Positions 1 to 12,442 of a stretch of 12,442 nucleotides of DNA are shown in pieces; the stretch's first letter is position 1, and each line of letters starts with the position of its first letter. Origin of the DNA: Candidatus Eiseniibacteriota bacterium (lineage in GTDB: Bacteria > Arandabacterota > Arandabacteria > Arandabacterales > Arandabacteraceae); contig JBDRNT010000145.1 of assembly GCA_043810925.1 (NCBI GenBank), positions 1 through 12,442 of the forward strand, given 5' to 3'. Below the pieces are notes generated by a model, which was not told the DNA's origin, did not search any database, and was given only the letters and a program-made list of their open reading frames with translations. The position numbers and the translations under genes were made by a program.

Positions 1-140
1 AGATCACCCTGTAGTGCCGCGTAACATCGCAACGGTTACTAAATCGGAAGATAAGATTTGGGAGTCCCCCACTGCTGGTGGACGGTCTACATTCTCACGC
101 ACCCACGCCGGCGAAAATCGGGGGTTTTGGGATGGGAACT

Positions 141-165
141 AATTAAGTCTGGTGCCACCGAAATT
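141..165 (+). repeat. 25-bp boundary repeat, copy A (AATTAAGTCTGGTGCCACCGAAATT)
   Basis: Matches copy B at 19/25, copy C at 20/25 and copy D at 20/25 by manual alignment. It lies 1 bp from the stop codon (167-169) of the lipoprotein gene. Confidence 0.8.
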
Positions 166-166
166 T

Positions 167-694
167 CTACTCTGGAGGAAACTGCCCGAATAGCTCGGTT
201 ACGGCTTCGAGAATCCTTGCCTCCATATCCTTTGGATTGTAGACCGCGCCCACCGCCGTACCCCGCCAGATTAGCTGTTTCTCATCCGCATCGACCAGAT
301 CCAGTAGCAGGGTGCCTTCCTTGTACCTCTGGACGTCGACGTGCCTTCCGACCCACCGGCCTCGCGGACCGTAGCTGTAACCATGTGTTGTGACATCGAC
401 CTTGTTCTTAGACCCTATGTGATATGCGACGAGCAGGTCCGGCTTGCCGGTCATTACCCTCTCGTAACCCTTGGCAGCAAGCTCGGCCTCAACAGCATCG
501 CGCAGTCGCTTATCAAAGAGCGAGGCGTCGAAGGATCGCCGTGGTGGAGCTTTGGGTTTCTGCTTGATCCAGTCAAAGGTCTTATACTGCGTAAAATCAG
601 TGTCCTGATCATAGTCGGTAGTAACCGACATCGTTGCACAACCGTATGTGCCGCTTAGCAGGAACAGCACCAAAACCAATGCCAGGTATCTCAT
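167..694 (-). CDS. DUF4136-domain lipoprotein
   Basis: The ATG at 694 follows a GGAGG RBS. The signal peptide has a lipobox (MRYLALVLVLFLLSGTYG-C). Family-typical motifs are present: DYD..DF..YKTFDW, PDLLVAY, Y.EGTL.LDLVDA....LIWRG.A, FPP. Confidence 0.9.
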   Translation of the reverse strand: MRYLALVLVLFLLSGTYGCATMSVTTDYDQDTDFTQYKTFDWIKQKPKAPPRRSFDASLFDKRLRDAVEAELAAKGYERVMTGKPDLLVAYHIGSKNKVDVTTHGYSYGPRGRWVGRHVDVQRYKEGTLLLDLVDADEKQLIWRGTAVGAVYNPKDMEARILEAVTELFGQFPPE

Positions 695-886
695 CGGGCT
701 TCCCTCCCTGGTTCGACCATCCACAGCGTGATCCATCCACCATGCGGCATGCTCTCATTTGCTTAACCGGCAGGCAAGCCAAAACCCCAGTCTCGGTGTG
801 CTCAACCCTGAGAGTCGGAGTGTGTCGTGTAACGTTTAGTGCGCGAAGTTGTGGGGAGTTGGTAGCATCGGGTGTCGAGTTCACCC

Positions 887-911
887 AATTGATGTGACAC
901 CACACTTAATC
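887..911 (-). repeat. 25-bp boundary repeat, copy B (minus strand GATTAAGTGTGGTGTCACATCAATT)
   Basis: Reverse complement matches copy A at 19/25. It is inverted relative to A, so A and B bracket the lipoprotein gene. Confidence 0.8.
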
Positions 912-931
912 GCCGCAGTTTCGTGCAACTA

Positions 932-2084
932 GTGCCGTGTCTCAGAAAGTGGTAGCTTTTTTGTCACTGATGTTGTAATCATGGAGGAACCTCACTAAGG
1001 AGGGTTTCTTCATGTGCGTTGGAGTTCGAGAGTTGATCACGTCGGAGGGTAAGAAGTTGCAGCGGCTTCTTCGCGGTGGGACGGATCCGATCACTTACAA
1101 ACGAGCGTTGGTGGTTCTGACGTCTGCTCAGGGCAGTTCTATCCGCGAGATAGCATCTGGCCAGTTGTTGTCGCGTGAGTATGTACGTCGGATCATCCAT
1201 GAGTTCAACCTGAAGGGTATGGCCTCGCTTCGGCGGGGATACGAGCGTGGAGGCCGCAAGCGTCAGATTCCACCCGAGGTGCGTAGTGTGATAGCGGAGT
1301 ATGCCCTGATCCCGCCGAAGATTGTAGGTTGTCCGTTCACCCGCTGGTCTCTGCGGAAGTTGCGTGCGTTCCTGATCCGGCGGGGCGTGGTGAAGACAAT
1401 CGGCCTGGAGACCCTGCGACGTATCTTCTCAGAGTACGGAGTCTCGTTCCAGCGGATCAAGACGTGGAAGGAGTCTAAGGATCCAGACTTCGTGGTAAAA
1501 AAACGCCATCAGGGCTCTCCTTGCGGCTGTACCGAAAGGCAAGCGGGTGATCGCGGTGGATGAGTTTGGACCCTTGTCGGTGCAACCGCAACCTGGCCGT
1601 ACATGGGCCCGGGTCAAACATCCCCGTAGGCGGCGTGCAACCTATAGGAGACCTCATGGGGTGACCTTCTTCCTGGGTGCCTATGATGTGGGAGCAAACA
1701 AGTTAATGGGACGCAGTTTCGATCGCAGACGCCATCAGGAGTTCCTCCTCTTCCTCCAGTGACTCCGGGCCAAGTACCCTGATGGGAAGAAGATCTATCT
1801 GATCGCGGACAATCTCTCGACTCATCTTCATCCAAAAGTCAAGCAGTGGGCGCATCGAAATCATGTCCACTTCACCTTCACACCTACCAACGCCTCCTGG
1901 CTCAACCCTATAGAGGCACACTTCGGGGGTATCAGCGAATTCGTTATCAAAGGCTCCGACTATGAGGGAAGAACTCAACTACGAGGAGAGATCCAGAAAT
2001 ACCCTCCGATGGAGAAATGCAAACCCATCGGACAAGCGCATCAAAAGGGCACAGAAAAAACACCAACTTTACGAGACGGGGCAC
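932..2084 (+). mobile_element. IS630-family insertion sequence, 1153 bp, inactivated
   Basis: Flanked by TA at 930-931 and 2085-2086. Terminal IRs including the TA are TAGTGCCGTGTCTCAGAAAGT and (reverse complement) TAGTGCCCCGTCTCGTAAAGT, 17/21 identical. Encloses IS630-type transposase reading frames. Confidence 0.93.
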
Positions 2085-2087
2085 TAG
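1012..2087 (+). pseudogene. IS630-family transposase, disrupted
   Basis: AAGGAGG RBS at 997-1003. N-terminal HTH region contains TRWSLRKL and WKESKDPDF. DDE motifs are IAVDEFGPL, YLIADNLSTH and TPTNASWLNPIE. Lesions: frame change at the A7 run (1497-1503), in-frame TGA at 1760-1762, and an extra C at 2002-2004. The restored C-terminus LRWRN...YETGH ends at TAG 2085-2087. Confidence 0.9.
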
Positions 2088-2103
2088 TGAGGAACTCACC
2101 GGT

Positions 2104-2127
2104 AATTCAGTTGGGGGCACTGTAACC
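2104..2127 (+). repeat. Degenerate boundary repeat, copy F (AATTCAGT-TGGGGGCACTGTAACC)
   Basis: Aligns to the consensus with a 1-bp gap and shares the AATTCAGT head with copy E. It sits exactly 37 bp from copy B once the IS630 and one TA are removed. Confidence 0.55.
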
Positions 2128-2180
2128 CCAGATTTCAAAGCCTGATCCCATCGGTGTGACCCCATCGGGGATGCGATCGG

Positions 2181-2205
2181 AAATTAGTATGGTGTCACTG
2201 AAATT
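2181..2205 (+). repeat. 25-bp boundary repeat, copy C (AAATTAGTATGGTGTCACTGAAATT)
   Basis: Matches copy A at 20/25. Confidence 0.8.
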
Positions 2206-2256
2206 GTTCGGGTATGCTGTCGCGGTAGAACATACGCACAACACGGGGGTGAGGGC

Positions 2257-2403
2257 ATGAATGTGAATAAGAAGCGGGAAAGCAAGAGCATAATAGCAGC
2301 CCTGTGCATCTGCCTTCTCTTCACAGGTATGGTAGCAGGATCAAAGATCAACCGGGGCGAGGAAGAGTCTTCAGTGACATCAAGAGAGCTCGTAGTATGC
2401 TGA
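2257..2403 (+). pseudogene. Orphan 5' end of a secreted-protein gene (signal peptide only, 48-aa ORF)
   Basis: A GGTGAGG RBS precedes ATG 2257. Manual translation MNVNKKRESKSIIAALCICLLFTGMVAG shows a basic N-region and a hydrophobic H-region. The ORF then runs out of frame into transposase sequence and stops at TGA 2401-2403. Confidence 0.55.
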
Positions 2404-2579
2404 GCAGAGCTCTACCTGACATGTTTCACTACCTGGATGATCCCAGGATCCCGTCAAGCACCAATGGTCTTGAAGGCTACTTCGCACAGCTGAAAGGACA
2501 CTACCGCCAACATAGAGGCTTAACCAGACAGAAGTGGACCGACTACTTCAATTGGTACTTCCACTACAAACCCAGATGA
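2337..2579 (+). pseudogene. C-terminal transposase fragment, IS256/mutator-like (Zn-binding variant-like)
   Basis: The motif LPDMFHYLDDPRIPSSTNGLEGYFAQLKGHYRQHRGL resembles the TTN.LE catalytic-Glu region of IS256-type transposases. The N-terminus is missing and the left boundary is approximate. A possible right end lies near GTAATATGCC at about 2614. Confidence 0.75.
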
Positions 2580-2646
2580 GTATAGAAAAAAGCCACATCT
2601 GTGAGTAATATGCCCGCGATGACATCGTCTAACACAGGACGATCTG

Positions 2647-5610
2647 CTATCTGATAAGCACGGCCCTCTTTGTGTCACTGCCCAACGGGCTTCCGCAATT
2701 CAGGAAGTAGACCCCAGATGCCACGTCACGGCCCGAATCATCCTTGCCATTCCACGCCATATTGTGCGTGCCCGCACCGAATGATTCATCTGCCAGAATC
2801 GTAACCAGCCTGCCCCTTGTGTCATACACCCTGACCGCTGCATCCGAGGCCCGTGCGAGTGTGACTGCGAACCTGATTTCAGACACAGCCGGAACAGGAT
2901 AGGGAGCGGAGAGTGTCACAGCTTTCCCGGACACGAGATCCATCCACTCAGGACGGACACCGGACTCGCCGATTGTCGCCCTGAAGTAGAGGTCGGCGTT
3001 TCCGTGTCGCATGTCGGTCCAGGCAACATAGACCCCACCCGTGACATCCACACCTATTGCAGGTAGGTTCGAGGCCCCGGGAGCGTTCGAAATCCTCATC
3101 TGGTCCAGCCACCCCGACCCCTCGTTGGATACAAGGTAAATCTCCGTCTCGCCGTGGCGATGGTCTACCCAGGTAACATGAACATCGTCCGCGCCGCTTG
3201 TAGCCACTGACGGACTGCAGGCCTCCGTCCCACCGGTTACAATCTGCTCGACCGGCTGCCACGCCGAACCGTCGTACAAGACATAGAAGATATCCCCACC
3301 GGTATTCTCACCATCCTGCCAGACAACGTGAAGCGTGGAATCAGGAGCGGCCGCGATCACCGGATCCCTCGAGTAGGATGAATCGTTCGAAATCTCTGTT
3401 CGACCTGACCAGGTCACTCCGTCCCAGCTCTGGTGCACAACCTTCTCCATCTCATCATTCACATTCGATGTCTGGCGTTCATACACCAGGTGTACCAGAC
3501 CGTCTGCCCCGAGGGCTACCGACGGCCGGTACGAGTCGCGTTGCGTGGATGCATCGACATCCACGGGTGCGGACCATCCCAGGCCCGTACGCACCGCGAA
3601 ATAAACGCCTTGAGTCCGGAGCCCATAACCGAGCCGCCGCTGCCAGGCAAGATAGACCTCCGATTCACCGGCAGCTATGGCAGGACTGAGGTCCACCTCC
3701 GACAGGTTGGCAACCTGCTCGTCACTTCCCCAGCCACCGACCGGATCGAAGTACTTGTAGAAGACTTCCTGGTCGCCGTCACGATCGTCGATCCAGGCCA
3801 CGTGGAGTCCACCACCCGGATCCTCGGCAATACATGGGCTGTGCGAGTGACCGGCATCATCAGTCAGGCGTGTTTCTGTTCCCCATGTACCTCCACTGCG
3901 CCGGCGATAATAGATCTCGCTGTTGGCATCACGTGTGTCGGCCCACACTAGATGGAGGGTACCATCATCACTCGCGATCATCGCCCGGCCACCGGGGAAA
4001 CACATGACGGAACTTCCATCGTCGTTCGTCAGGCGTTCCTCAGGGTCCCATCCCGCAAGCAGCGGGCTTCCCACGTCAACGGCGGCGTACGAATGACCGC
4101 CGATACTGTCGCTGTAGGACGCGTAGGAGAAGGACGTCCCCTCGACGATGCCCTGGGCCTGAAATGCCATGCCCCACTGACCTGCAGGCCCAGCCGCCAC
4201 AACATCCCATGCCGCCGTGACGGTGTCACCCGACAACATCACCGGAAGTGACACCGTGGGCGTGCCGCTTGCAAGTGCCAGACCGGCTGAGAGGTTTATC
4301 GTGGCCGTGCACATGGAACAAGGGAAAGCCCCGGCAAACCGCGTAGGGCCGGGATACACCACATCGAGATCGACAGAGAAGGTGTCGCCCTGGGAGACTG
4401 ATGACGGCACGGTCGGTGTCAGGAGCCACGGGCTCACCACCATGCCCCAGTAGGTGTATATCCACAGGGTGTCGACGAAGAAGTCCTGGTCTATGAGTAG
4501 ATCGGGGCCGCAAAGGTACCCGGCATACCAAGGGTCATGGATGACGAATACGTTCAGACTGTCATCATAACCCTTGACCACGCGGTAGTGACCGCCTGTC
4601 TGGTATTCATCATACCAGGTAAGTGTGAAAACGGGATAGCCGGCATAAACTGTCTTCTTAAGCCGCACAGCCTGATTCGTGAAGAATGTCACGTCTACGC
4701 ACGCAAGACCCAACTTGCGCTCGTTGTAACCTTGAAGTGAAGGATTCTGAATCGCCGTACTCATCCCGCTGAAGTGCGCAGCACGGCGGTTGTCGGTATC
4801 CATGGTCCCGTAGCTCGGTGCTTCATTCGTGACATCGCCGATATCGTGCTGGCCTATTTCCTCACCCACGAAATCCATCATCATCTGATTTGAAGCCGGC
4901 CCGCAATACCAGTCCGTTATCTGGAAGTGGTAGGGTACACCGGGAAGGCAGTAGGCCGGTGGGTAATCATCCACAAGCGGGGAATCGTCACCGGAAGCGG
5001 AGAGGTTACCGGGAGTATCCGGCTGTGCGCGATTCGGATCAATCAGCGATGGAGCGGGCGTCAGCAGCCTCCGGTATGATTCGTCCCGGGATCTGATTAG
5101 CGGGGCATCACTCCGGGAAGCGTCTATCAACCACACATCATCACCGGTCTCGTAGCGCCAATAGACATGCTTGTCGGAGCCACCGATCAGGATGGGTTCT
5201 TCAAACTCGCCCGATTCCCCGATCGCATGACGTTCGGCCCGCAGTCTTTGTCCGGCATCCGCGGCCGAGACCAGGGGAAAACCATCACCCGTATAACTGA
5301 ACGAGTACCATCTCGGCGCCCCGGACCGGGCATCGACGGAAATCATGCCGATGATGTCTCCATGTGACGAGCGGATCGGCACGACTCCGTAGGAGGGCAC
5401 AAGTGTCTCGGGATGGTGAATGAAGAAGACCTCATCCAGAGAGGCACCCTCAAGTGCCGCCTTGGGAACAAGTTCATCGCTGCCGACCGAGATCGCCCGA
5501 TCGAGAGCATCATTCGCCGCACGGAGCGCGGCGGGTCTGTCAACCTCATATGAAAACGCAACTGAAAAAACTGCAAGAACCAACGCTACTGTCAGAGCCA
5601 GGTGTCTCAC
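2647..5610 (-). CDS. Secreted multidomain protein: C39-like cysteine peptidase, Ig-like domain, beta-propeller repeats and FlgD-Ig/C-terminal sorting-like domain
   Basis: GTG start with GGAGG RBS and a signal peptide. Catalytic motifs are QITDWYCGPAS (Gln, Cys), GGHYRVVKGYD (His) and IHDPW (Asp). About six (L/V)H(L/V)(V/A)W.D repeats follow. The C-terminus has PYPVP...VRVYDTRGRLV...WNGKDDSGRDVASGVYF. Confidence 0.88.
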   Translation of the reverse strand: MRHLALTVALVLAVFSVAFSYEVDRPAALRAANDALDRAISVGSDELVPKAALEGASLDEVFFIHHPETLVPSYGVVPIRSSHGDIIGMISVDARSGAPRWYSFSYTGDGFPLVSAADAGQRLRAERHAIGESGEFEEPILIGGSDKHVYWRYETGDDVWLIDASRSDAPLIRSRDESYRRLLTPAPSLIDPNRAQPDTPGNLSASGDDSPLVDDYPPAYCLPGVPYHFQITDWYCGPASNQMMMDFVGEEIGQHDIGDVTNEAPSYGTMDTDNRRAAHFSGMSTAIQNPSLQGYNERKLGLACVDVTFFTNQAVRLKKTVYAGYPVFTLTWYDEYQTGGHYRVVKGYDDSLNVFVIHDPWYAGYLCGPDLLIDQDFFVDTLWIYTYWGMVVSPWLLTPTVPSSVSQGDTFSVDLDVVYPGPTRFAGAFPCSMCTATINLSAGLALASGTPTVSLPVMLSGDTVTAAWDVVAAGPAGQWGMAFQAQGIVEGTSFSYASYSDSIGGHSYAAVDVGSPLLAGWDPEERLTNDDGSSVMCFPGGRAMIASDDGTLHLVWADTRDANSEIYYRRRSGGTWGTETRLTDDAGHSHSPCIAEDPGGGLHVAWIDDRDGDQEVFYKYFDPVGGWGSDEQVANLSEVDLSPAIAAGESEVYLAWQRRLGYGLRTQGVYFAVRTGLGWSAPVDVDASTQRDSYRPSVALGADGLVHLVYERQTSNVNDEMEKVVHQSWDGVTWSGRTEISNDSSYSRDPVIAAAPDSTLHVVWQDGENTGGDIFYVLYDGSAWQPVEQIVTGGTEACSPSVATSGADDVHVTWVDHRHGETEIYLVSNEGSGWLDQMRISNAPGASNLPAIGVDVTGGVYVAWTDMRHGNADLYFRATIGESGVRPEWMDLVSGKAVTLSAPYPVPAVSEIRFAVTLARASDAAVRVYDTRGRLVTILADESFGAGTHNMAWNGKDDSGRDVASGVYFLNCGSPLGSDTKRAVLIR

Positions 5611-5653
5611 GTTCCGTGCCTCCCGTTACTGCAGCACACACTGCAGGAATTGT

Positions 5654-5683
5654 AGTATACCACACCCGCCGCTGTGGTGTCAA
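5654..5683 (-). promoter_or_regulatory. Sigma70-type promoter of the peptidase gene
   Basis: Minus strand TTGACA (5683-5678), 18 bp, TATACT (5659-5654), with an extended -10 TG. It lies 43 bp upstream of the start codon. Confidence 0.7.
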
Positions 5684-5715
5684 AGCCTCCCGCAGCCAAT
5701 GTCTGACCGCGGGAT

Positions 5716-5740
5716 AATGTCGCCTACACCATACTGAATT
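5716..5740 (-). repeat. 25-bp boundary repeat, copy E (minus strand AATTCAGTATGGTGTAGGCGACATT)
   Basis: Matches the consensus at 20/25. Inverted partner of copy D across a 37-bp spacer. Confidence 0.75.
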
Positions 5741-5777
5741 ACTGAGAAACGGACCAGAAGTTGGACCAGAACGCAGG

Positions 5778-5802
5778 AATTAAGCATGGTGCAACCGAAC
5801 CT
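5778..5802 (+). repeat. 25-bp boundary repeat, copy D (AATTAAGCATGGTGCAACCGAACCT)
   Basis: Matches copy A at 20/25. It overlaps the ABC-F stop codon (5801-5803). Confidence 0.8.
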
Positions 5803-7810
5803 ACTGGAACTTTTCGAGCTCCTCAAGCAGGCGTTCGAGCTTCCGCTCGGCATCCATGTAGTCATCGGCCAAACGATGGATCTCACCACGATCCGGTGGG
5901 GGATTGCGGAGAGTGCGATCGAGGTCGGTGAGCTTCTCCTCAAGCTCGGAAATATCTTTGTTCAACTCGGCCAGGCGGGCCTTGCGGCGACGCTCCTCGG
6001 CGATCTCGCGGTTTTTTGCGGCACGGGCCTTCTTGAAAGCCTCACGCTTGCTCACGCGGGCCTCCTCGGCACCCGGATCGGCAGGCACGACGGGCTCCTG
6101 ACGCGAGTGATATTCGCTATACGTGCCGTCGAAGATCTTAAGATCTGCTTCGTTCCTGTCAATCTCCCAGACCTGTGTCGCGAGGGCGTCAATCAGGTAG
6201 CGGTCGTGAGAAACCAGGATGATGGTCCCATCAAATTCGGCCAGTACGTTCTGCAGAACCTCCTGAGACGGGATATCGAGATGGTTGGTCGGCTCATCCA
6301 GGAGCAGGAAGTTGCAGTCGCCGAGCGCGAGCTTTGCAAGTGCCAGTCGTCCACGCTCACCACCCGAGAGGACGCTGACTTTCTTAAAGACGTCGTCACC
6401 AGTGAAGAGATAGCGGGCGAGATGGCTTCGGATCTCACCGGGCAGCAAGTGGCCGGCGACTGATTCGATTTCCTTGATCAGGGTGTTCTCCGGATTGAGC
6501 CCCTCGTGAGCCTGAGCGAAGTAGCCTACATCGAGTTTGACACCGAGCTCGACCTTGCCTCCCACCGGCGGAATTATGCCGAGGATGGTTTTGAGAAGCG
6601 ATGTCTTGCCGGAACCGTTGGGACCGATCAAGGCCGCACATCCCTGGCGCGTGAGTTCCATGTCGGGAACAGCGAAGAGACGTTTGCCCGGATAGCCTAC
6701 CACAAGATCGTTTGTGCGAAGGACGATGTTACCACCGCGTTTTGCGGCACGCAGTTTGAACTTGAGTTGCTGTGGGCGGCGAACCGGGTTCTGCAGGGAG
6801 CGGACACGCCGCTCGGCCTCTTCAACACCCATCACACTTGTAGTTATCTGCACCTCCCCACTTATCCGAAGCCATGACTTGCCCCGCATGGCCTCAAGCC
6901 CGATCTGCTCGATCGCCTGCACCTGGCGGCTAAGACGCTTAAGCCGGCCCCGGGCCTGGGGGACGTTCTGTGCGGAGATATTGCGTTTGATGTAATCCAC
7001 GTCCTTGAGAAGACGGGCTTTCTCTGCTTCAAATTCCTTTGATCGAAGTTCCCACCGTTCCTGGCGTTGCCTGAGGTAATGGCTGTAGTTGCCACGATAG
7101 GGTTCGATTCCGCCCGTGTTCATCTCCCAGATGTTGTTGCACACCTTGTCGAGGAGATAGCGGTCGTGCGAGACAACAAGAATAGCACCGTCCCAGTCCT
7201 TTATGTAGTTCTCCAGCCATTCGACCGACACGGTATCGAGATGGTTGGTCGGCTCGTCCAGTATCAGAAGATTCGGGCCGTCGAGTAAGAGCCGTGCAAG
7301 CAAAGCACGGGTTCGCTGGCCGCCGGAAAGATGACTGACCGGCTGGTGGTGTTCCTCGGAGGAGAACCGCAGACCGGTCAAGACCTGGCGGATGCGTGCT
7401 TCGTAAGTGTATCCGCCCAACTCTTCGAAGCGGGTCTGGAGCGTACCGTAGCGTTCCATAACCCCGTCGGCCTTCTCAGGCGCGGCCATCTCACCCTCAA
7501 GATGGGCCAGCTCTTCCTGAATGGTGAGGACGTCCGCAAATGGCAACAGACACTCCTCCCAGAGGGTCTTGCTGGACTCCACCACGGACTCCTGAGGCAG
7601 GTAGCCTATGGTCAGTCCCCTGGCGCGCTGGACCGAACCTATCGACGGAGCGTCCTCTCCCGCAACGATACGAAGCAGGGTCGTCTTCCCGATGCCGTTC
7701 GGACCGACGATCGCGATGCGCGCACCGTGAGGAATGCTAAGGGACAGCCCGGCGAAAACGCTCACGTCGCCGAAGCTCTTACCTATGTTCTGTGTAGTTA
7801 CTAAAGACAT
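5801..7810 (-). CDS. ABC-F family ATP-binding protein (ribosome-associated, Uup/YdiF-like)
   Basis: Two ABC domains (GPNGIGKTT/LSGGQ/LDEPTNHLD and GPNGSGKTS/LSGGE/LDEPTNHLD), no TM segments, an inter-domain helical linker and a C-terminal coiled coil. Confidence 0.95.
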   Translation of the reverse strand: MSLVTTQNIGKSFGDVSVFAGLSLSIPHGARIAIVGPNGIGKTTLLRIVAGEDAPSIGSVQRARGLTIGYLPQESVVESSKTLWEECLLPFADVLTIQEELAHLEGEMAAPEKADGVMERYGTLQTRFEELGGYTYEARIRQVLTGLRFSSEEHHQPVSHLSGGQRTRALLARLLLDGPNLLILDEPTNHLDTVSVEWLENYIKDWDGAILVVSHDRYLLDKVCNNIWEMNTGGIEPYRGNYSHYLRQRQERWELRSKEFEAEKARLLKDVDYIKRNISAQNVPQARGRLKRLSRQVQAIEQIGLEAMRGKSWLRISGEVQITTSVMGVEEAERRVRSLQNPVRRPQQLKFKLRAAKRGGNIVLRTNDLVVGYPGKRLFAVPDMELTRQGCAALIGPNGSGKTSLLKTILGIIPPVGGKVELGVKLDVGYFAQAHEGLNPENTLIKEIESVAGHLLPGEIRSHLARYLFTGDDVFKKVSVLSGGERGRLALAKLALGDCNFLLLDEPTNHLDIPSQEVLQNVLAEFDGTIILVSHDRYLIDALATQVWEIDRNEADLKIFDGTYSEYHSRQEPVVPADPGAEEARVSKREAFKKARAAKNREIAEERRRKARLAELNKDISELEEKLTDLDRTLRNPPPDRGEIHRLADDYMDAERKLERLLEELEKFQ

Positions 7811-7819
7811 AGCTATTGA

Positions 7820-7848
7820 AATCTACATGGATAGCGCGAGGCACACAA
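7820..7848 (-). promoter_or_regulatory. Possible sigma70 promoter immediately upstream of the ABC-F ATG
   Basis: Minus strand TTGTGT, 17 bp, TAGATT, ending 9 nt before ATG 7810. No SD sequence is visible. Confidence 0.4.
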
Positions 7849-7882
7849 AGGATTTTCCGGGCCGGCCAGGCTTTACCGAATA

Positions 7883-8593
7883 TCAGTCGAGCTTCATCGC
7901 CTGCTTGCGCTTGGCAGCCGGCCACTTCTCAATTGCATAACGAAGAGCTGTCCGGGACATCCTTTTCTTATGTTTCATCACGAACTTGTGCACATCGTCG
8001 AAGAAGTAATCCCCGGCCACCTTCAGCATCCAGCCATAGCCCTTCTGCACCAGGTCTTCGTCATCTCTCATCAGGAGTTCTGCCGTCTTGAACACATCCT
8101 TAAGCAGTAACCCGCGCGTGACGGGCACGATCAGGGCAACCGCAGATGCGCGTCTGAGCCACATGTTTCTGGATGCCACCCACTTCTCCCGCTTCGGGGA
8201 GAGATCGGGAAACGTGGCAATCAGACTGCCGAGTATCCCGCAGAATTGATCGCATGAGGCCCAGTCACTTACGTACTTCTTGAGCCACCGTTCGAATCGT
8301 ACAATGTCCTTCCGTGCGTACTGCTCTTCGAGTTTCTGGGCCCACTCAAATGCCACGAAGCGGGTGTAACGCCTGCCGCTTGCGAGCATCTCATCACAGA
8401 TATCCAGTATCTCGTCCCTGTCACACGACCTGACTGTCTTGAAGACCTTGTTTGACACCCCACGCACGATGGGAGTCCTTAAGCCGACAGGGTGCTCGAG
8501 TTTCTCCTTGAAGAACCGTTGATAGTCGGTCCTGTTCGCCGGCTTGTCCACCGCTTTGATCTCCTTGAGCAAGGTCTTGACTACGGCATGCAT
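7883..8593 (-). CDS. DNA alkylation repair protein (AlkD-like HEAT-repeat family)
   Basis: Strong AGGAGGT RBS. Motifs include GLRTP, WASCD, S.NMWLRRA, D.EDLVQKGYGWMLK and MSRTALRYAIEK. Confidence 0.92.
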   Translation of the reverse strand: MHAVVKTLLKEIKAVDKPANRTDYQRFFKEKLEHPVGLRTPIVRGVSNKVFKTVRSCDRDEILDICDEMLASGRRYTRFVAFEWAQKLEEQYARKDIVRFERWLKKYVSDWASCDQFCGILGSLIATFPDLSPKREKWVASRNMWLRRASAVALIVPVTRGLLLKDVFKTAELLMRDDEDLVQKGYGWMLKVAGDYFFDDVHKFVMKHKKRMSRTALRYAIEKWPAAKRKQAMKLD

Positions 8594-8608
8594 CCGGCCA
8601 CCTCCTCT

Positions 8609-9130
8609 TCAGCTGGTCCGGCCCAGCTGATCTTCAGCCACTTCAATGGACCTCAGCCGTACTGATATGACGGTAATGCCATACCCGGCAAGGGTCAGGT
8701 TGATGCGCCTGGCAATCGCCTCGCCCACCTCATGTTGACTGTACCGGCCCTGGCGCAACCCGTAAGCATCGGCATAGTCACTGAGGAACTCCGTTACGAC
8801 CGGGGATATGAGTCTTTCAACGAACGCGCCCTCATAGGATCTGTGTAGCTTCAAGATACTGTCGGCGCAGACGGACATCAGCAGAACTCCGTCGAAATGC
8901 ATCTTCCCGATCGGCCCGTCATAGGTTATTTCCAGTCGCGTCTCACGACTCTCGACCGGATAGATCGTAGCGCGCCGCCACGGGGCTTTCATGTGGAGAC
9001 CGTGATCGAGCAACCGCAGGTCATCACCTGATTCGATCACACCCATGTAGCCGCGGTGGATATACTGGCTCGATGCCACAACACCGGCGATCGCCGCACA
9101 GACTGCTATGATCACTATCTTCTTCGTCAT
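8609..9130 (-). CDS. SPFH/Band-7-like domain protein with N-terminal membrane anchor
   Basis: The likely start is ATG 9130 (MTKKIVIIAVCAAIAGVVA). HRGYMGV, GLHMKAPW and L.GYGITVISVRLRSI match SPFH patterns. The protein is 173 aa with no coiled-coil tail. Confidence 0.65.
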   Translation of the reverse strand: MTKKIVIIAVCAAIAGVVASSQYIHRGYMGVIESGDDLRLLDHGLHMKAPWRRATIYPVESRETRLEITYDGPIGKMHFDGVLLMSVCADSILKLHRSYEGAFVERLISPVVTEFLSDYADAYGLRQGRYSQHEVGEAIARRINLTLAGYGITVISVRLRSIEVAEDQLGRTS

Positions 9131-9209
9131 GGTTGAAGGCACGCTCTCTTTGCCAGGAGTATACCGGATTCTCCCGATTGCCAGAAGGGATTTGCATTCG
9201 GATATCCGG

Positions 9210-9238
9210 TTGATCGGCCGGATTGTACCTGTTAGTGT
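9210..9238 (+). promoter_or_regulatory. Possible sigma70 promoter of the YdeI-like gene
   Basis: TTGATC (9210-9215), 17 bp, TAGTGT (9233-9238), with an extended TG at 9230-9231. It ends 7 nt before ATG 9246. Confidence 0.45.
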
Positions 9239-9245
9239 CATCCGC

Positions 9246-9827
9246 ATGGTACGACAAGAAGTGAAGCAACTCTATGTGACCGGCAGGGAAGAATGGCGAG
9301 CCTGGCTTAAGAAGAACCATGACACAGTGAAAAAGATCTGGTTGATCTACTACAAGAAGCACACAGGCAAACCACGAATTCCTTACGATGATGCGGTTGA
9401 AGAGGCTCTTTGCTTCGGCTGGATAGACTCCACCGTGAAACGCCTCGATGATGAGAGATACATGCAAAAATACACTCCCCGTAAGGCCAAGAGTGTCTGG
9501 TCGGAGACAAACAAAGCTCGGGCAAAGAAGATGATCCAACAGGGACGGATGACTGAAACCGGTCTCTCCAGGATCAGGGATGCAAAGCGTAGCGGGGAAT
9601 GGAAGAAAGCCGGATCGCGAGACCTACCGGACGAGATCCCGCACGATCTCAAGCGGGCTCTCGCAGCCAACAAGAGTGCCAAGCGCAACTTCGAGAACCT
9701 TGCTCCTTCCTACAAGAAGCAGTTCATCTGGTGGATCTCTAGTGCCAAGCGGGATGAAACCCGGCAGAAGAGGATCGAGAAGACCGTCAGCATGGCGGAG
9801 GAGAACAAGAAACCGGGTATGCTGTAG
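9246..9827 (+). CDS. YdeI/OmpD-associated family protein (bacteriocin-protection-like)
   Basis: Hallmark motifs are WRAWL..NH, YDDAVEEALCFGWIDS, YTPRK.KS.WS..NK, P.DL..AL.AN..A...F and SAKRDETR..RI. The start is ATG 9246 or GTG 9261. Confidence 0.92.
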   Translation: MVRQEVKQLYVTGREEWRAWLKKNHDTVKKIWLIYYKKHTGKPRIPYDDAVEEALCFGWIDSTVKRLDDERYMQKYTPRKAKSVWSETNKARAKKMIQQGRMTETGLSRIRDAKRSGEWKKAGSRDLPDEIPHDLKRALAANKSAKRNFENLAPSYKKQFIWWISSAKRDETRQKRIEKTVSMAEENKKPGML

Positions 9828-9944
9828 CGCAGGGTCTCCGTGTCCGACGAGTATCAGTCCGCCGGGGCTGAAGGACTCCCTGGCGCTCCCCGACGCAGTC
9901 CCCGTCGAATGCTCGTAGAGCAGTCTGCAGGCGCGTGAGGCGGG

Positions 9945-9973
9945 TTGACAGGTGGTTCCGGGTCTTGTATGGT
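9945..9973 (+). promoter_or_regulatory. Sigma70-type promoter of the wHTH-propeller gene
   Basis: Perfect TTGACA (9945-9950), 17 bp, TATGGT (9968-9973). Confidence 0.6.
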
Positions 9974-10067
9974 GCGGTTGCGGGCGTCTGTCCGAGACGC
10001 GGGGCTTCCGGAGTTGAGATCGGGCCACGGCGTACGGAGAAACACCGGTTGAGAAAGCTTGCATACC

Positions 10068-12236
10068 ATGAATGACGCGAACCAGCTGCCGGGAAGCACA
10101 TGCGATGTCCATCCGTTCCGTATCGGTACCTGGCTGGTTCAGCCGGGACTCAACAGGCTGACTCGTGGACAGGAATCTATCGCGATCGAACCCCGAATCA
10201 TGCATGTCCTGACGTGTCTTGCGAGCCGTCCCGGTCAGGTCGTCGCAAGGTCGGCGCTTCTCGACACCGTCTGGGGCGAGGTCGTAGTCAATGAGGAGGC
10301 GCTGACTCATGCCGTATCCCAGCTTCGACGTGTCCTGGGTGATGACCCTAAGAATCCCGGCTTCATCGAGACTATCCACAAGAGCGGTTATCGTCTGATT
10401 GCACCGGTCTCACCGGACCGCGGGGACCAGACACCCGGCGCCGAGGCTGAGGACACACCGGGTACGTTGGATGCATCATCAGACCGCGTGGTCCGTCCGC
10501 AGCGGGGTCTATTCAGAAAGAGGCTCGTCGCAGCGCTCGGCACGCTCATCGTCGTCATTGCCGTCATCTCTGTCTTCGTAATCATCCCTCGGTCCCGGTC
10601 GAAGATCAACCCGCTCCCGGTCGCACTGGAGGAGATTCCGCTTACCAGCTACACTGGAAGCGAGATCTGTCCTGCCATCTCACCCGATGGAACCCGCATC
10701 GCCTTTTCCTGGAAGCAGGAAGATGAGAGCAACTACGATCTCTACATCACTCAGAAGAACGCAGAGACACCACTGCGCCTGACCGACACGGATGGTGATG
10801 AATACTATGCAGTCTGGTCACCGGATGGTGCTGAACTGGCGTACGCCTACCAGGGCGGGGACGGGATCACGATCTACATCATCCCCGCCATCGGGGGTTC
10901 GCCGCGGAAAGTCGTTGATCCTCCCCACGGTATCGCCGCCATGGACTGGTCACCGGACGGGCGGTCGCTTGCCTACTCGTCGCGGAAGGCGATGTATGAG
11001 CCCCACAGGATCTTCCTGTTTTCATTTGAGACCGGACAGAACCGTGAGCTCACTTCACCCGTACCATTCTCACAGGGAGACTACCGTCCCGTGTTTTCTC
11101 CCGACGGCGCCAGCGTTGCCTTTACCCGGGGGGACAGGACGTACCTGCAGGATATCTTCATCGTTCCCACACGAGGAGGTGATCCCGAACGAATCACCCA
11201 TTCCCAGCACTACATTGCCGGTCTGGATTGGACGCCGGATGGAGAAGCCCTGATCTTTTCGTCGGGCCCGACGCGGATTGCCGATCTGCGGCTTTGGAGA
11301 CTCTCGCTTAAGGATAGATCGCTCACCTGGCTGCCTACTGTGGGCCACCGGCCCTTACGGCCCTCAGTTGCTCTTAAGGCTGCGGGACTCGTGTATGAGC
11401 AGCAATCGATGGGGTCCGATATCCTCAAGATCGAGGTCCCCGGAGACGGCAAGGAGGCAGTCCCCGTCATAGCATCCACCCGTCATGACTACGGCCCGCA
11501 ATATTCACCCGGAGGCAATCTGATCTCTTTCATATCTACCCGCTCGGGGAGTCCGCAGATCTGGGTGTGCAGAGCGGATGGATCGAATCCGCGGGAGTTG
11601 ACTCGCTTCGAACGAGCATACATTGAGAACCCCTGCTGGTCTTATGATGAACGCCGTATAGCCTTCAGTGCAGCCCCGGGGAACCAGACAGCCATCTATG
11701 TCGCGGACATCGAAACCGGAGAGGTCACCCGTCTCTCGGCCTCAGACAAGCATGAGAAGTGTCTTGGCTGGTCAAGGGACGGCGAGTGGCTCTACTGCAA
11801 GTCGGAGCGAAGTGAGGCCTGGTGGGTCTGGAAGATCCGATCGGATGGAAGCGACGCTGTCGATCTCATGGAAGAAGACGTATTCCGGCTTGCCGAGTCG
11901 AGTGACGGAAGACGCCTTGTATACTCAAGAGCCGACACATCCGGCGTCTGGTCGACAACGCTTGCCGGAACGGAGAAAGCGTGTCTCATCAACGAGCCCG
12001 GTACCGTTGTTCCCTGCGGGTGGCGGGAGACCGAAAAGGGCATTTACTTCTTCAATGTGGATGAGGGTGCAGTCAGCCTGTGGCTCAAGGATGCCGCCAC
12101 CGGCGAGGTGGAGAGACTGGCCACGGGAGCCGAGTTTTTTGCGATCAACCTCGATGTCTCACCCGCCGGTGACGCTGTTGTTTTCGACCGCATGGGACCT
12201 ATCGAATCCGACATAGCCCTTGTCGAGGCTTTCTGA
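10068..12236 (+). CDS. Membrane-anchored transcriptional regulator: OmpR/CadC-type winged helix, TM helix and TolB/PD40-like beta-propeller repeats
   Basis: The wHTH region has EPRIM.VL..LA.RPGQVV.R..LL..VW...L..AVSQLRR.LGDD...P.FIETI.K.GYRL. The TM segment is LVAALGTLIVVIAVISVFVII. There are repeated (W/F)SPDG..(I/L)A(F/Y) motifs. ATG 10068 is preferred over TTG 10059. Confidence 0.92.
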   Translation: MNDANQLPGSTCDVHPFRIGTWLVQPGLNRLTRGQESIAIEPRIMHVLTCLASRPGQVVARSALLDTVWGEVVVNEEALTHAVSQLRRVLGDDPKNPGFIETIHKSGYRLIAPVSPDRGDQTPGAEAEDTPGTLDASSDRVVRPQRGLFRKRLVAALGTLIVVIAVISVFVIIPRSRSKINPLPVALEEIPLTSYTGSEICPAISPDGTRIAFSWKQEDESNYDLYITQKNAETPLRLTDTDGDEYYAVWSPDGAELAYAYQGGDGITIYIIPAIGGSPRKVVDPPHGIAAMDWSPDGRSLAYSSRKAMYEPHRIFLFSFETGQNRELTSPVPFSQGDYRPVFSPDGASVAFTRGDRTYLQDIFIVPTRGGDPERITHSQHYIAGLDWTPDGEALIFSSGPTRIADLRLWRLSLKDRSLTWLPTVGHRPLRPSVALKAAGLVYEQQSMGSDILKIEVPGDGKEAVPVIASTRHDYGPQYSPGGNLISFISTRSGSPQIWVCRADGSNPRELTRFERAYIENPCWSYDERRIAFSAAPGNQTAIYVADIETGEVTRLSASDKHEKCLGWSRDGEWLYCKSERSEAWWVWKIRSDGSDAVDLMEEDVFRLAESSDGRRLVYSRADTSGVWSTTLAGTEKACLINEPGTVVPCGWRETEKGIYFFNVDEGAVSLWLKDAATGEVERLATGAEFFAINLDVSPAGDAVVFDRMGPIESDIALVEAF

Positions 12237-12296
12237 CCGGATCCCGGTGGAACCGCCGGTCGAACTCCTGTGATACACTCCGCGAATTGGTGGACT

Positions 12297-12320
12297 GTCA
12301 CGAATGGCACTAACTTAATC
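12297..12320 (-). repeat. Degenerate (half) boundary repeat, copy G (minus strand GATTAAGT-TAGTGCCATT...)
   Basis: The head half matches copies A and B with the same 1-bp gap position as copy F. The tail half has diverged. It lies 60 bp past the regulator stop codon. Confidence 0.45.
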
Positions 12321-12442
12321 TCCTTCTATAGTAATTTCTGTGTGGGCATTCCTTGAAGACGCTGCGCGGTTTAGTAAGGAGTTGGTAGTTCTTGGGTCGC
12401 CGTTTTCTTGCCCTGGGTTCTGATCTGTTTGGTCTATGTGGC

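Follow-up and report, generated by a model that had tools for sequence, protein, structure and literature searches.

The closest described relatives of the repeat system treated here are the TIRtrons, TIRYT transposase genes flanked by terminal inverted repeats (TIRs) that are not of the repetitive extragenic palindromic (REP) type and that share the motif GGGGWSAS; their TIR families are moderately abundant, with copies that are single, dimeric or grouped (Di Nocera et al., 2013; PMC3733652). Most TIRYTs have been equated with subclass 2.1 of the TnpA-Y1 transposases and with group 1 of the REP-associated tyrosine transposases (RAYTs) as defined by Bertels, and Table 1 of the same survey gives the subclass the motifs NHVH, W[EQ], YIELNP and SS and a median length of 238 aa (Quentin et al., 2018; PMC6006769). 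The 16-mers flanking RAYT group 1 genes occur about 12 times (Bertels et al., 2017; PMC5581495). These statements, and the comparisons made with them below, draw on excerpts of the papers. Here we describe a 25-nt repeat family, F1, from Candidatus Eiseniibacteriota bacterium, first noticed on contig JBDRNT010000145.1 (12,442 nt, the window). The F1 units are very likely dispersed copies of the TIR of a TIRtron whose TIRYT-type Y1 gene lies outside the window, on contig C115 of the same genome. That genome, G000, is a 3.85 Mb binned assembly of 185 contigs, and the window is the entire contig C145.

The F1 Repeat Family

The F1 consensus is AATTAAGTWTGGTGTCACCGAAATT. A position matrix built from 86 genomic copies shows a conserved unit of exactly 25 nt; the base 5' of the unit is T in 46 of the copies and the base 3' of it is A in 41. 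AATT stands at either end, and the core forms the near-palindrome TTYGGTG-N-CACCRAA. We refer to the AATTAAG end as the head and to the CCGAAATT end as the tail.

Scanning the genome with the 25-mer gave 5, 25, 17, 17, 9, 10 and 3 copies with 0 to 6 mismatches, respectively, a total of 86, against 0, 1 and 1 copies in three shuffled genomes at up to 6 mismatches. According to a crude longest-ORF (open reading frame) gene call covering 88% of the genome, 69 copies lie entirely between ORFs, 13 extend across the end of one and four are wholly contained in one. The family reported in a first-pass annotation of the window thus withstands comparison with both shuffled sequence and coding regions, and the consensus typed there was right for it, with 5 exact and 25 one-mismatch copies elsewhere in the genome.

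The 86 copies fall into 45-50 clusters that comprise singles, tandem arrays and head-to-head doublets. Tandem arrays hold 2-4 units with a period of 31-32 nt (contigs C7, C38, C70, C81, C87, C95, C115, C148, C162 and C165), and their ends often carry 9-12-nt partial tail repeats. By eye, the 6-7-nt spacers are alike inside one array and different among arrays (for example in C162, C70 and C81), which suggests local duplication of the 31-32-nt unit. Some contigs bear direct arrays of 2-4 sites in opposite orientation, such as those at C7:12254 and C7:34651, 22 kb apart. Head-to-head pairs spaced at no more than 130 nt number 14 in the genome and fall into spacing classes of 31-32, 53, 62 and 101-106 nt, while tail-to-tail pairs are absent at distances up to 300 nt. 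The interiors of same-length doublets cannot be aligned across loci in either the 106-nt or the 62-nt class, for which reason we rejected a reading of these doublets as miniature inverted-repeat transposable elements (MITEs). As DNA, single F1 units fold at -0.6 to -2.6 kcal/mol (z of +0.6 to -2.0 against shuffles), whereas doublets taken as single strands form 25-bp stems at -27 kcal/mol (z -13.8).

A Y1 Transposase Gene Between Inverted F1 Arrays

A search of the genome with Pfam PF01797 (Y1_Tnp) returned three genes:

G000:C115:14859-15587, Y1 HUH transposase gene; 242 aa; PF01797 at 49 bits against a cut-off of 23
G000:C14:2865-3518, Y1 paralogue of F2 type; 55% identity to the C115 protein; flanked by F2
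G000:C15:6403-7284, Y1 paralogue of F3 type; 293 aa; 38% identity to the C115 protein; flanked by F3

The C115 gene is physically linked to F1. Three copies lie to its left (14690, 14722 and 14754, minus strand) and two to its right (15582 and 15614, plus strand), all with their heads toward the gene, whose TAA stop codon falls inside the first right-hand copy. The first-pass annotation had pointed to RAYT-type genes as possible neighbours of the repeat, and a gene of this kind flanked by inverted F1 arrays is what we found.

The protein contains the motifs PNHVHLV, LWQGRF, RYIEQNP and WPWSS. The HUH motif (N66-H67-V-H69) and a Y126-x-E-x-N-P motif can be recognized, with H67, H69, Y126, N130 and P131 invariant across 37 aligned homologues. 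Its only sequence match in the PDB is 4ER8, the E. coli TnpA-REP (E 9e-4), whose HMH and YIyiNP align with the catalytic motifs. An AlphaFold (AF2) model (mean predicted local distance difference test, pLDDT, 88.1; predicted template modelling score, pTM, 0.82) has 4er8_A as its best Foldseek match (E 2.6e-8, template modelling score 0.75 on the target), followed by the structures of ISDra2 and IS608 TnpA. The C-terminal domain gave no Pfam helix-turn-helix (HTH) match up to E 1. In an all-against-all BLASTP of the ORFs within 5 kb of 45 clusters, no second transposase family recurs; the recurrent neighbours, as raw counts only, are a secreted-protein group (14 loci) and ABC ATPases (7 loci).

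The repeat is conserved with the gene across phyla, and homologues in many of them have near-identical inverted repeats of 25 nt at their flanks. In a scan of one genome per species, 605 loci encode relatives, of which the best 80 (55-63% identity) were kept. The relatives come from Proteobacteria, Desulfobacterota, Planctomycetota, Nitrospirota, Bacillota, Armatimonadota and Acidobacteria. Both full flanks could be examined for 49 of the 80 loci, and 32 of these 49 show inverted repeats at their flanks that agree exactly over 12 nt or more, in most cases at a distance of 32-50 nt from the start codon. The majority are of the ..AAGTATGGTGTCCCC.. type, as in loci L060 (AATTTAGTATGGTGTCCCCGAAAT) and L063, and close to F1. 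In five of these genomes the 13-nt core occurs 26, 15, 10, 7 and 2 times, with spacings like those of F1, in doublets at 28-32 nt and tandems at 29 nt.

Two Paralogues With Their Own Families and a Related Genome

The two paralogues of the C115 gene are linked in parallel fashion to repeat families of their own. The F2 unit, AATTTGTAAGCTGGTACCGAATTA, has 80 copies with up to 6 mismatches against 1 in a shuffle, and the F3 unit, GGGGTCAGAGCTAAAAAAGTGAC, has 79 against 7. All three families share one layout, with inverted arrays around their own gene and doublets and arrays elsewhere. Toward its C-terminus, the F3-type protein has HTH matches that are weak and stay below cut-off (E 0.008-0.07).

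In some spacers, F1 units stand next to F2 units or next to F3 units, namely at G000:C55:24824-24979, at C52:57726-57770 and 59089-59253, and at C94:26122-26208. The three families thus have landing places in common.

We compared G000 with G001, a genome of the same genus that is 86% complete:

F1 core (14-mer): 52 exact copies in G000, 4 exact copies in G001; cognate gene not found in G001
F2 core: 25 copies in G000, 21 in G001; gene present in G001, flanked by its own repeat
F3 core: 61 copies in G000, 99 in G001; gene present in G001, flanked by its own repeat

In these two genomes, copy number tracks the presence of the gene. The best G001 match to the F1-type protein is a 56%-identical gene of the C14 type. 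A search of 39 further genomes found no F1 core, and 11 other genomes from the taxonomic family contain no copy of any of the three cores. Among the four F1 sites of G001, one is conserved in G000, one partly so, one is present in G001 only, and one is a 14-nt half-unit indel. This half unit lies in G001:C117 at about 25097 and is missing at G000:C165 at about 6920, exactly at a stop codon (TAA versus TAG), which makes the two loci a candidate filled and empty site pair for defining the target; the indel points to TA or TAA as that target.

F1 Copies in the Window

The first-pass annotation listed seven copies in the window, placed at gene boundaries and alternating in orientation. Five of them are supported by a profile built from 71 copies outside the window, at E of 0.01 or less:

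141..165, plus strand, F1 copy A; 2 mismatches, profile E 2.7e-7
887..911, minus strand, F1 copy B; 5 mismatches, profile E 1.7e-4
2181..2205, plus strand, F1 copy D; 3 mismatches, profile E 3.2e-6; solo, in the spacer right of an IS630-like element
5716..5740, minus strand, F1 copy E; 5 mismatches, profile E 5.6e-3; left half of a head-to-head doublet
5778..5802, plus strand, F1 copy F; 5 mismatches, profile E 9.5e-3; right half of the doublet
2104..2128, plus strand, claimed copy C; unsupported as a member of F1
12297..12321, minus strand, claimed half copy G; unsupported as a member of F1

The two remaining claims were recovered neither by a mismatch scan (up to 8 mismatches for copy C) nor by the profile at E up to 100, and at 12297 only a AATTAAGT-like head can be discerned by eye. 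At 3 or fewer mismatches the typed consensus matches the window only at 141-165 (2 mismatches) and 2181-2205 (3), both on the plus strand, and matched none of 200 shuffles. No F2 or F3 unit in the window scored better than E 0.28, so the window holds F1 alone.

All five supported copies are intergenic, with the orientation + - + - +, as had been claimed, and all are degenerate (2-5 mismatches). The tail of copy A stops 1 nt short of the stop codon (167-169) of a DUF4136 lipoprotein gene, and its head is interrupted by an inserted multi-copy element. Copy B sits 150 nt upstream of the start of the lipoprotein gene, and 17 nt separate its head from the IS630-like element's left end. The doublet formed by copies E and F measures 62 nt centre to centre, with 37 nt separating the heads; the tail of copy E points to the start of a peptidase gene (5610) at a distance of 105 nt, and that of copy F overlaps the stop codon (5801-5803) of an ABC-F gene.

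A TIRtron as the Probable Source of F1

We infer that the C115 enzyme moves the F1 units. A TIRYT-type enzyme would cut and rejoin DNA at F1 units, and this activity would scatter single units and head-to-head doublets over intergenic spacers; tandem arrays would then arise by local duplication of a 31-32-nt unit. The five copies of the window are very probably old, mutated members of the family; they lie in the 3' and 5' spacers of ordinary chromosomal genes. The first-pass annotation had named REP-type elements moved by a RAYT encoded elsewhere as one possibility. That possibility is supported by the C115 gene within inverted F1 arrays and is in essence correct, with one reservation: as F1 is no palindrome, the TIRYT/TIRtron variant suits it better than a classical REP does.

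Several points weigh against this assignment. The E. coli TnpA-REP recognizes a hairpin plus GTAG, a mode of recognition that is not simply transferable to F1, since the single unit has no hairpin. The C115 protein reaches only 69 bits (E 3.8e-19) against the NCBIfam model NF047646 (REP_Tyr_transpos), below its 80-bit cut-off. The correlation between gene and copy number rests on two genomes, and as one of these is only 86% complete, the F1-type gene may be unassembled there. G000 is itself a binned assembly split over 185 contigs, and the contigs of one public read run (12% of sampled words) give no cover at 141, 887, 2181 and 5716-5802 and no joint at a repeat, so that direct evidence of insertion polymorphism did not emerge from them. 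As far as the excerpted text goes, no REP-like sequences were found near subclass 2.1 genes (Quentin et al., 2018; PMC6006769), and no enzyme of this subclass has demonstrated activity, here or in the excerpts of the literature cited.

Tails at Stop Codons and a Possible Host Role

Among 39 usable clusters, 14 have the tail of their outermost unit at -3 to +5 nt relative to a convergent gene's stop codon, against 3.0 ± 1.5 expected (maximum 8) when clusters were slid within their spacers in 2000 trials. The count leaves aside 11 of 50 clusters with overlapping ORF calls or a missing neighbour, window copy A among them; copies A and F both show the abutment. TAA is the stop in eight of the 14 abutting clusters, against 21% genome-wide. 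In G041, an unrelated genome with a related repeat, none of 25 examined copies lies within 5 nt of a convergent stop and five lie within 40 nt; the abutment belongs to the present lineage and not to the class.

The excess of tails at stop codons, together with the near-palindromic core, the 31-32-nt spacing of arrays and doublets, which is close to three helical turns, and the strong single-stranded folding of the doublets, would also suit sites with a host function, either protein-bound operators or terminator or stabilizer elements at RNA 3' ends, that are near the transposase gene by accident. We regard this as very improbable: across phyla, the unit and the transposase are conserved together, with inverted copies on the two sides of the gene, each of three paralogous genes has a repeat family of its own, copy number follows the presence of the gene, and the sites turn over between congeners, as the four G001 sites illustrate. 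The F1 units may still have a secondary host role besides transposition.

A broader proposal is that TIRYT enzymes recognize helically phased, non-hairpin 25-bp sites, unlike the hairpin-guided RAYTs, and that in this lineage the outward-facing tail, which supplies a TAA, has been co-opted as a gene-end signal at about one third of the loci. The 31-32-nt arrays, the discrete head-to-head classes with unrelated interiors and the cross-phylum repeat hint at non-hairpin recognition. We put this proposal forward as doubtful.

Cassette Sites and Ends of Other Elements as Unlikely Alternatives

Short recombination sites at gene ends are known from two systems that move gene blocks. Sites of the pdif/Xer type are 28 bp long, with XerC and XerD arms around a 6-bp spacer, and integrons combine an IntI integrase, an attI site and an array of same-orientation ORF-attC cassettes. 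The first-pass annotation saw blocks of genes bounded by inverted repeats and took the repeats as possible sites of a cassette-assembly system recalling pdif modules, though not as canonical dif or attC sites. On such a reading, a pdif-like, Xer-type or other tyrosine recombinase would move the blocks. The division into blocks is true of the window itself, where the orientation alternates and copies A and B (141+/887-) bracket one small gene, and the AATT at both unit ends and the short palindromic core would suit such a site. It fails as a rule, since no other two copies in the genome stand tail to tail at a distance of up to 1 kb.

No tyrosine recombinase accompanies the repeat: the genome has 14 PF00589 matches, all of them on contigs devoid of F1 copies. 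Arrays of up to four units and doublets with 6-7-nt spacers enclose no genes. In G001 the orthologue of G000:C1:203-1612 is joined directly to the orthologue of the lipoprotein gene, which therefore keeps its left neighbour, and the 90-nt spacer beside it holds an F2-type doublet where G000 has copy A. The alkylation-repair, SPFH and YdeI genes also stay together there. Gene order between the two genomes is thus kept across the site of copy A, and it breaks at 7810-7883 and 9829-10059, where there is no repeat.

The likeness to pdif, Xer and attC sites is therefore confined to short sites at gene ends with alternating orientation in one window only. Two arms around a 6-8-nt spacer could not be shown for F1 (no Xer-site model was applied). 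Arrays of gene-plus-site units and an associated recombinase are lacking, synteny contradicts module mobility, and doublets and arrays without ORFs are unlike an integron cassette array (no IntI-specific search was made). With the synteny kept, the breaks off the repeats and no recombinase link, the repeats mark spacers that were colonized repeatedly rather than module borders. The F1 copies of the window do not delimit mobile gene blocks, and a cassette or module system is extremely unlikely.

A DDE-type element with several binding sites per end, in the style of Tn7, Mu or IS21, or the IS630-like element of the window, with F1 as its ends or MITEs, can hardly be upheld: the direct arrays of 2-4 oppositely oriented sites (as at C7:12254 and C7:34651) and the IS630-like element 17 nt from copy B would suit it, whereas only the Y1 gene, and no other transposase family, recurs beside the arrays, the inverted repeats of the IS630-like element are unrelated to F1, and the interiors of same-length doublets do not align with one another as those of MITE copies do.

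Other Features of the Window

The window also contains the following features:

1..145, no strand, end of a multi-copy element of unassigned family; bases 1-140 identical to G000:C168:11113-11252
167..736, minus strand, DUF4136 lipoprotein gene; stop abuts copy A
928..2088, plus strand, IS630-like insertion sequence (IS); 34-nt imperfect terminal inverted repeats next to TA
2647..5610, minus strand, C39-like peptidase with BNR, FlgD-Ig and a weak type IX secretion system (T9SS) sorting-domain match
5801..7810, minus strand, ABC-F ATPase gene; stop codon within the tail of copy F

The ends of contigs C129 and C34 are 82% identical to window bases 1-140, which agree fully with the end of contig C168. 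The multi-copy element has a 16-nt terminal inverted repeat at 124-139, with its partner at C1:124-139, and TAATTA (140-145 in the window) is present on both of its sides. It splits an F1 head-to-head doublet made up of C1:182 and window copy A, 62 nt centre to centre, and its insertion in the head of copy A is the likely reason for the assembly break at the start of the window.

The IS630-like element has an HTH ORF at 1012-1563 and the remainder of its transposase in another frame, after an A-run near 1496. Elsewhere in the genome it is represented only by a 172-nt piece on C117 (91% identity), and its inverted repeats have no relation to the 25-nt family. Neither its second frame nor the ORF at 2304-2579 has a Pfam match. 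The region 2258-2579 holds short ORFs without Pfam match, with a signal-peptide-like start at 2258 and a C-terminal part that resembles a transposase fragment by eye. In the mechanical ORF list, an SPFH-domain ORF (8609-9247, minus strand) and a YdeI/OmdA ORF (9108-9827, plus strand) overlap by about 140 nt on opposite strands; one of the two probably has a later start than the list gives.

Significance and Comparison With Known Systems

A conspicuous repeat family of an uncultured bacterium is here assigned to a specific gene, and the lead toward a cassette system is removed. It offers a clean natural comparison within a little-studied subclass, described in one survey as having no associated repeats. 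With three paralogues that each have a family of about 80 copies, and with the four F1 cores of the congener, the spread of self-end repeats by TIRYTs becomes testable in vitro and by comparative genomics. For annotation, it is of use that F1-like repeats break assemblies, attract IS insertions and sometimes provide the stop codon of a neighbouring gene.

The TnpA proteins of IS200/IS605 elements (IS608 and ISDra2; Foldseek ranks 2-25) share the catalytic fold and the HUH/Tyr chemistry of the C115 protein. These elements differ in their subterminal hairpins, in their Y-x-x-x-Q motif and in being multi-copy and autonomous, whereas here the gene is single-copy per type and only the end repeats are dispersed.

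Classical REPs, with the REPINs and bacterial interspersed mosaic elements (BIMEs) composed of them, are nearer in several respects, judging from excerpts of their descriptions (PMC2817692, PMC3116915). They too are short, intergenic, species-specific repeats, and in REPtrons a single-copy Y1 gene lies between inverted copies, each paralogue having its own family. Inverted doublets of both kinds form long hairpins, and both kinds of repeat are hot spots for IS insertion. The differences lie in the unit and in the enzyme. A single F1 unit is not an imperfect palindrome and has no stem-loop beyond shuffles; there is no GT[AG]G at the foot of a hairpin, and the matrix of the 86 copies reads ..AAGTWTGG.. 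instead. Many F1 copies are direct tandem repeats, whereas BIMEs alternate in orientation. The C115 protein is longer, with a C-terminal helical extension, and falls short of the NCBIfam RAYT model by the bit scores given above.

The agreement is closest with the TIRYTs and TIRtrons, within what the excerpted descriptions of that class cover. Compared by eye with Table 1 of PMC6006769, the C115 protein fits subclass 2.1 and RAYT group 1 in both motifs (NHVH, WQ, YIEQNP and WSS) and length (242 aa): it shares with the class its type (Y1 HUH transposase), a length of about 240 aa and the motifs NHVH, WQ, Y-x-x-x-NP and SS. Its gene lies between inverted repeats that are not hairpins. As for GGGGWSAS, the opposite strand of F1 comes near it with GGTGACAC, at 7 of 8 positions, and the homologue flanks read GGGGACAC or GGGGACAG. 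F1 is dispersed as singles, dimers and groups, and, as in the described class, several genes with different repeats can reside together in one genome. What sets the present case apart is the number of copies, 86, 80 and 79 for the three families against 2-26 exact cores in five genomes with homologues and about 12 copies of the flanking 16-mers (PMC5581495), together with the 31-32-nt tandem arrays, the tails at stop codons and a host from outside the lineages that the text available names for the class. The F1 system is a member of the described TIRYT class, at the high end of copy number.

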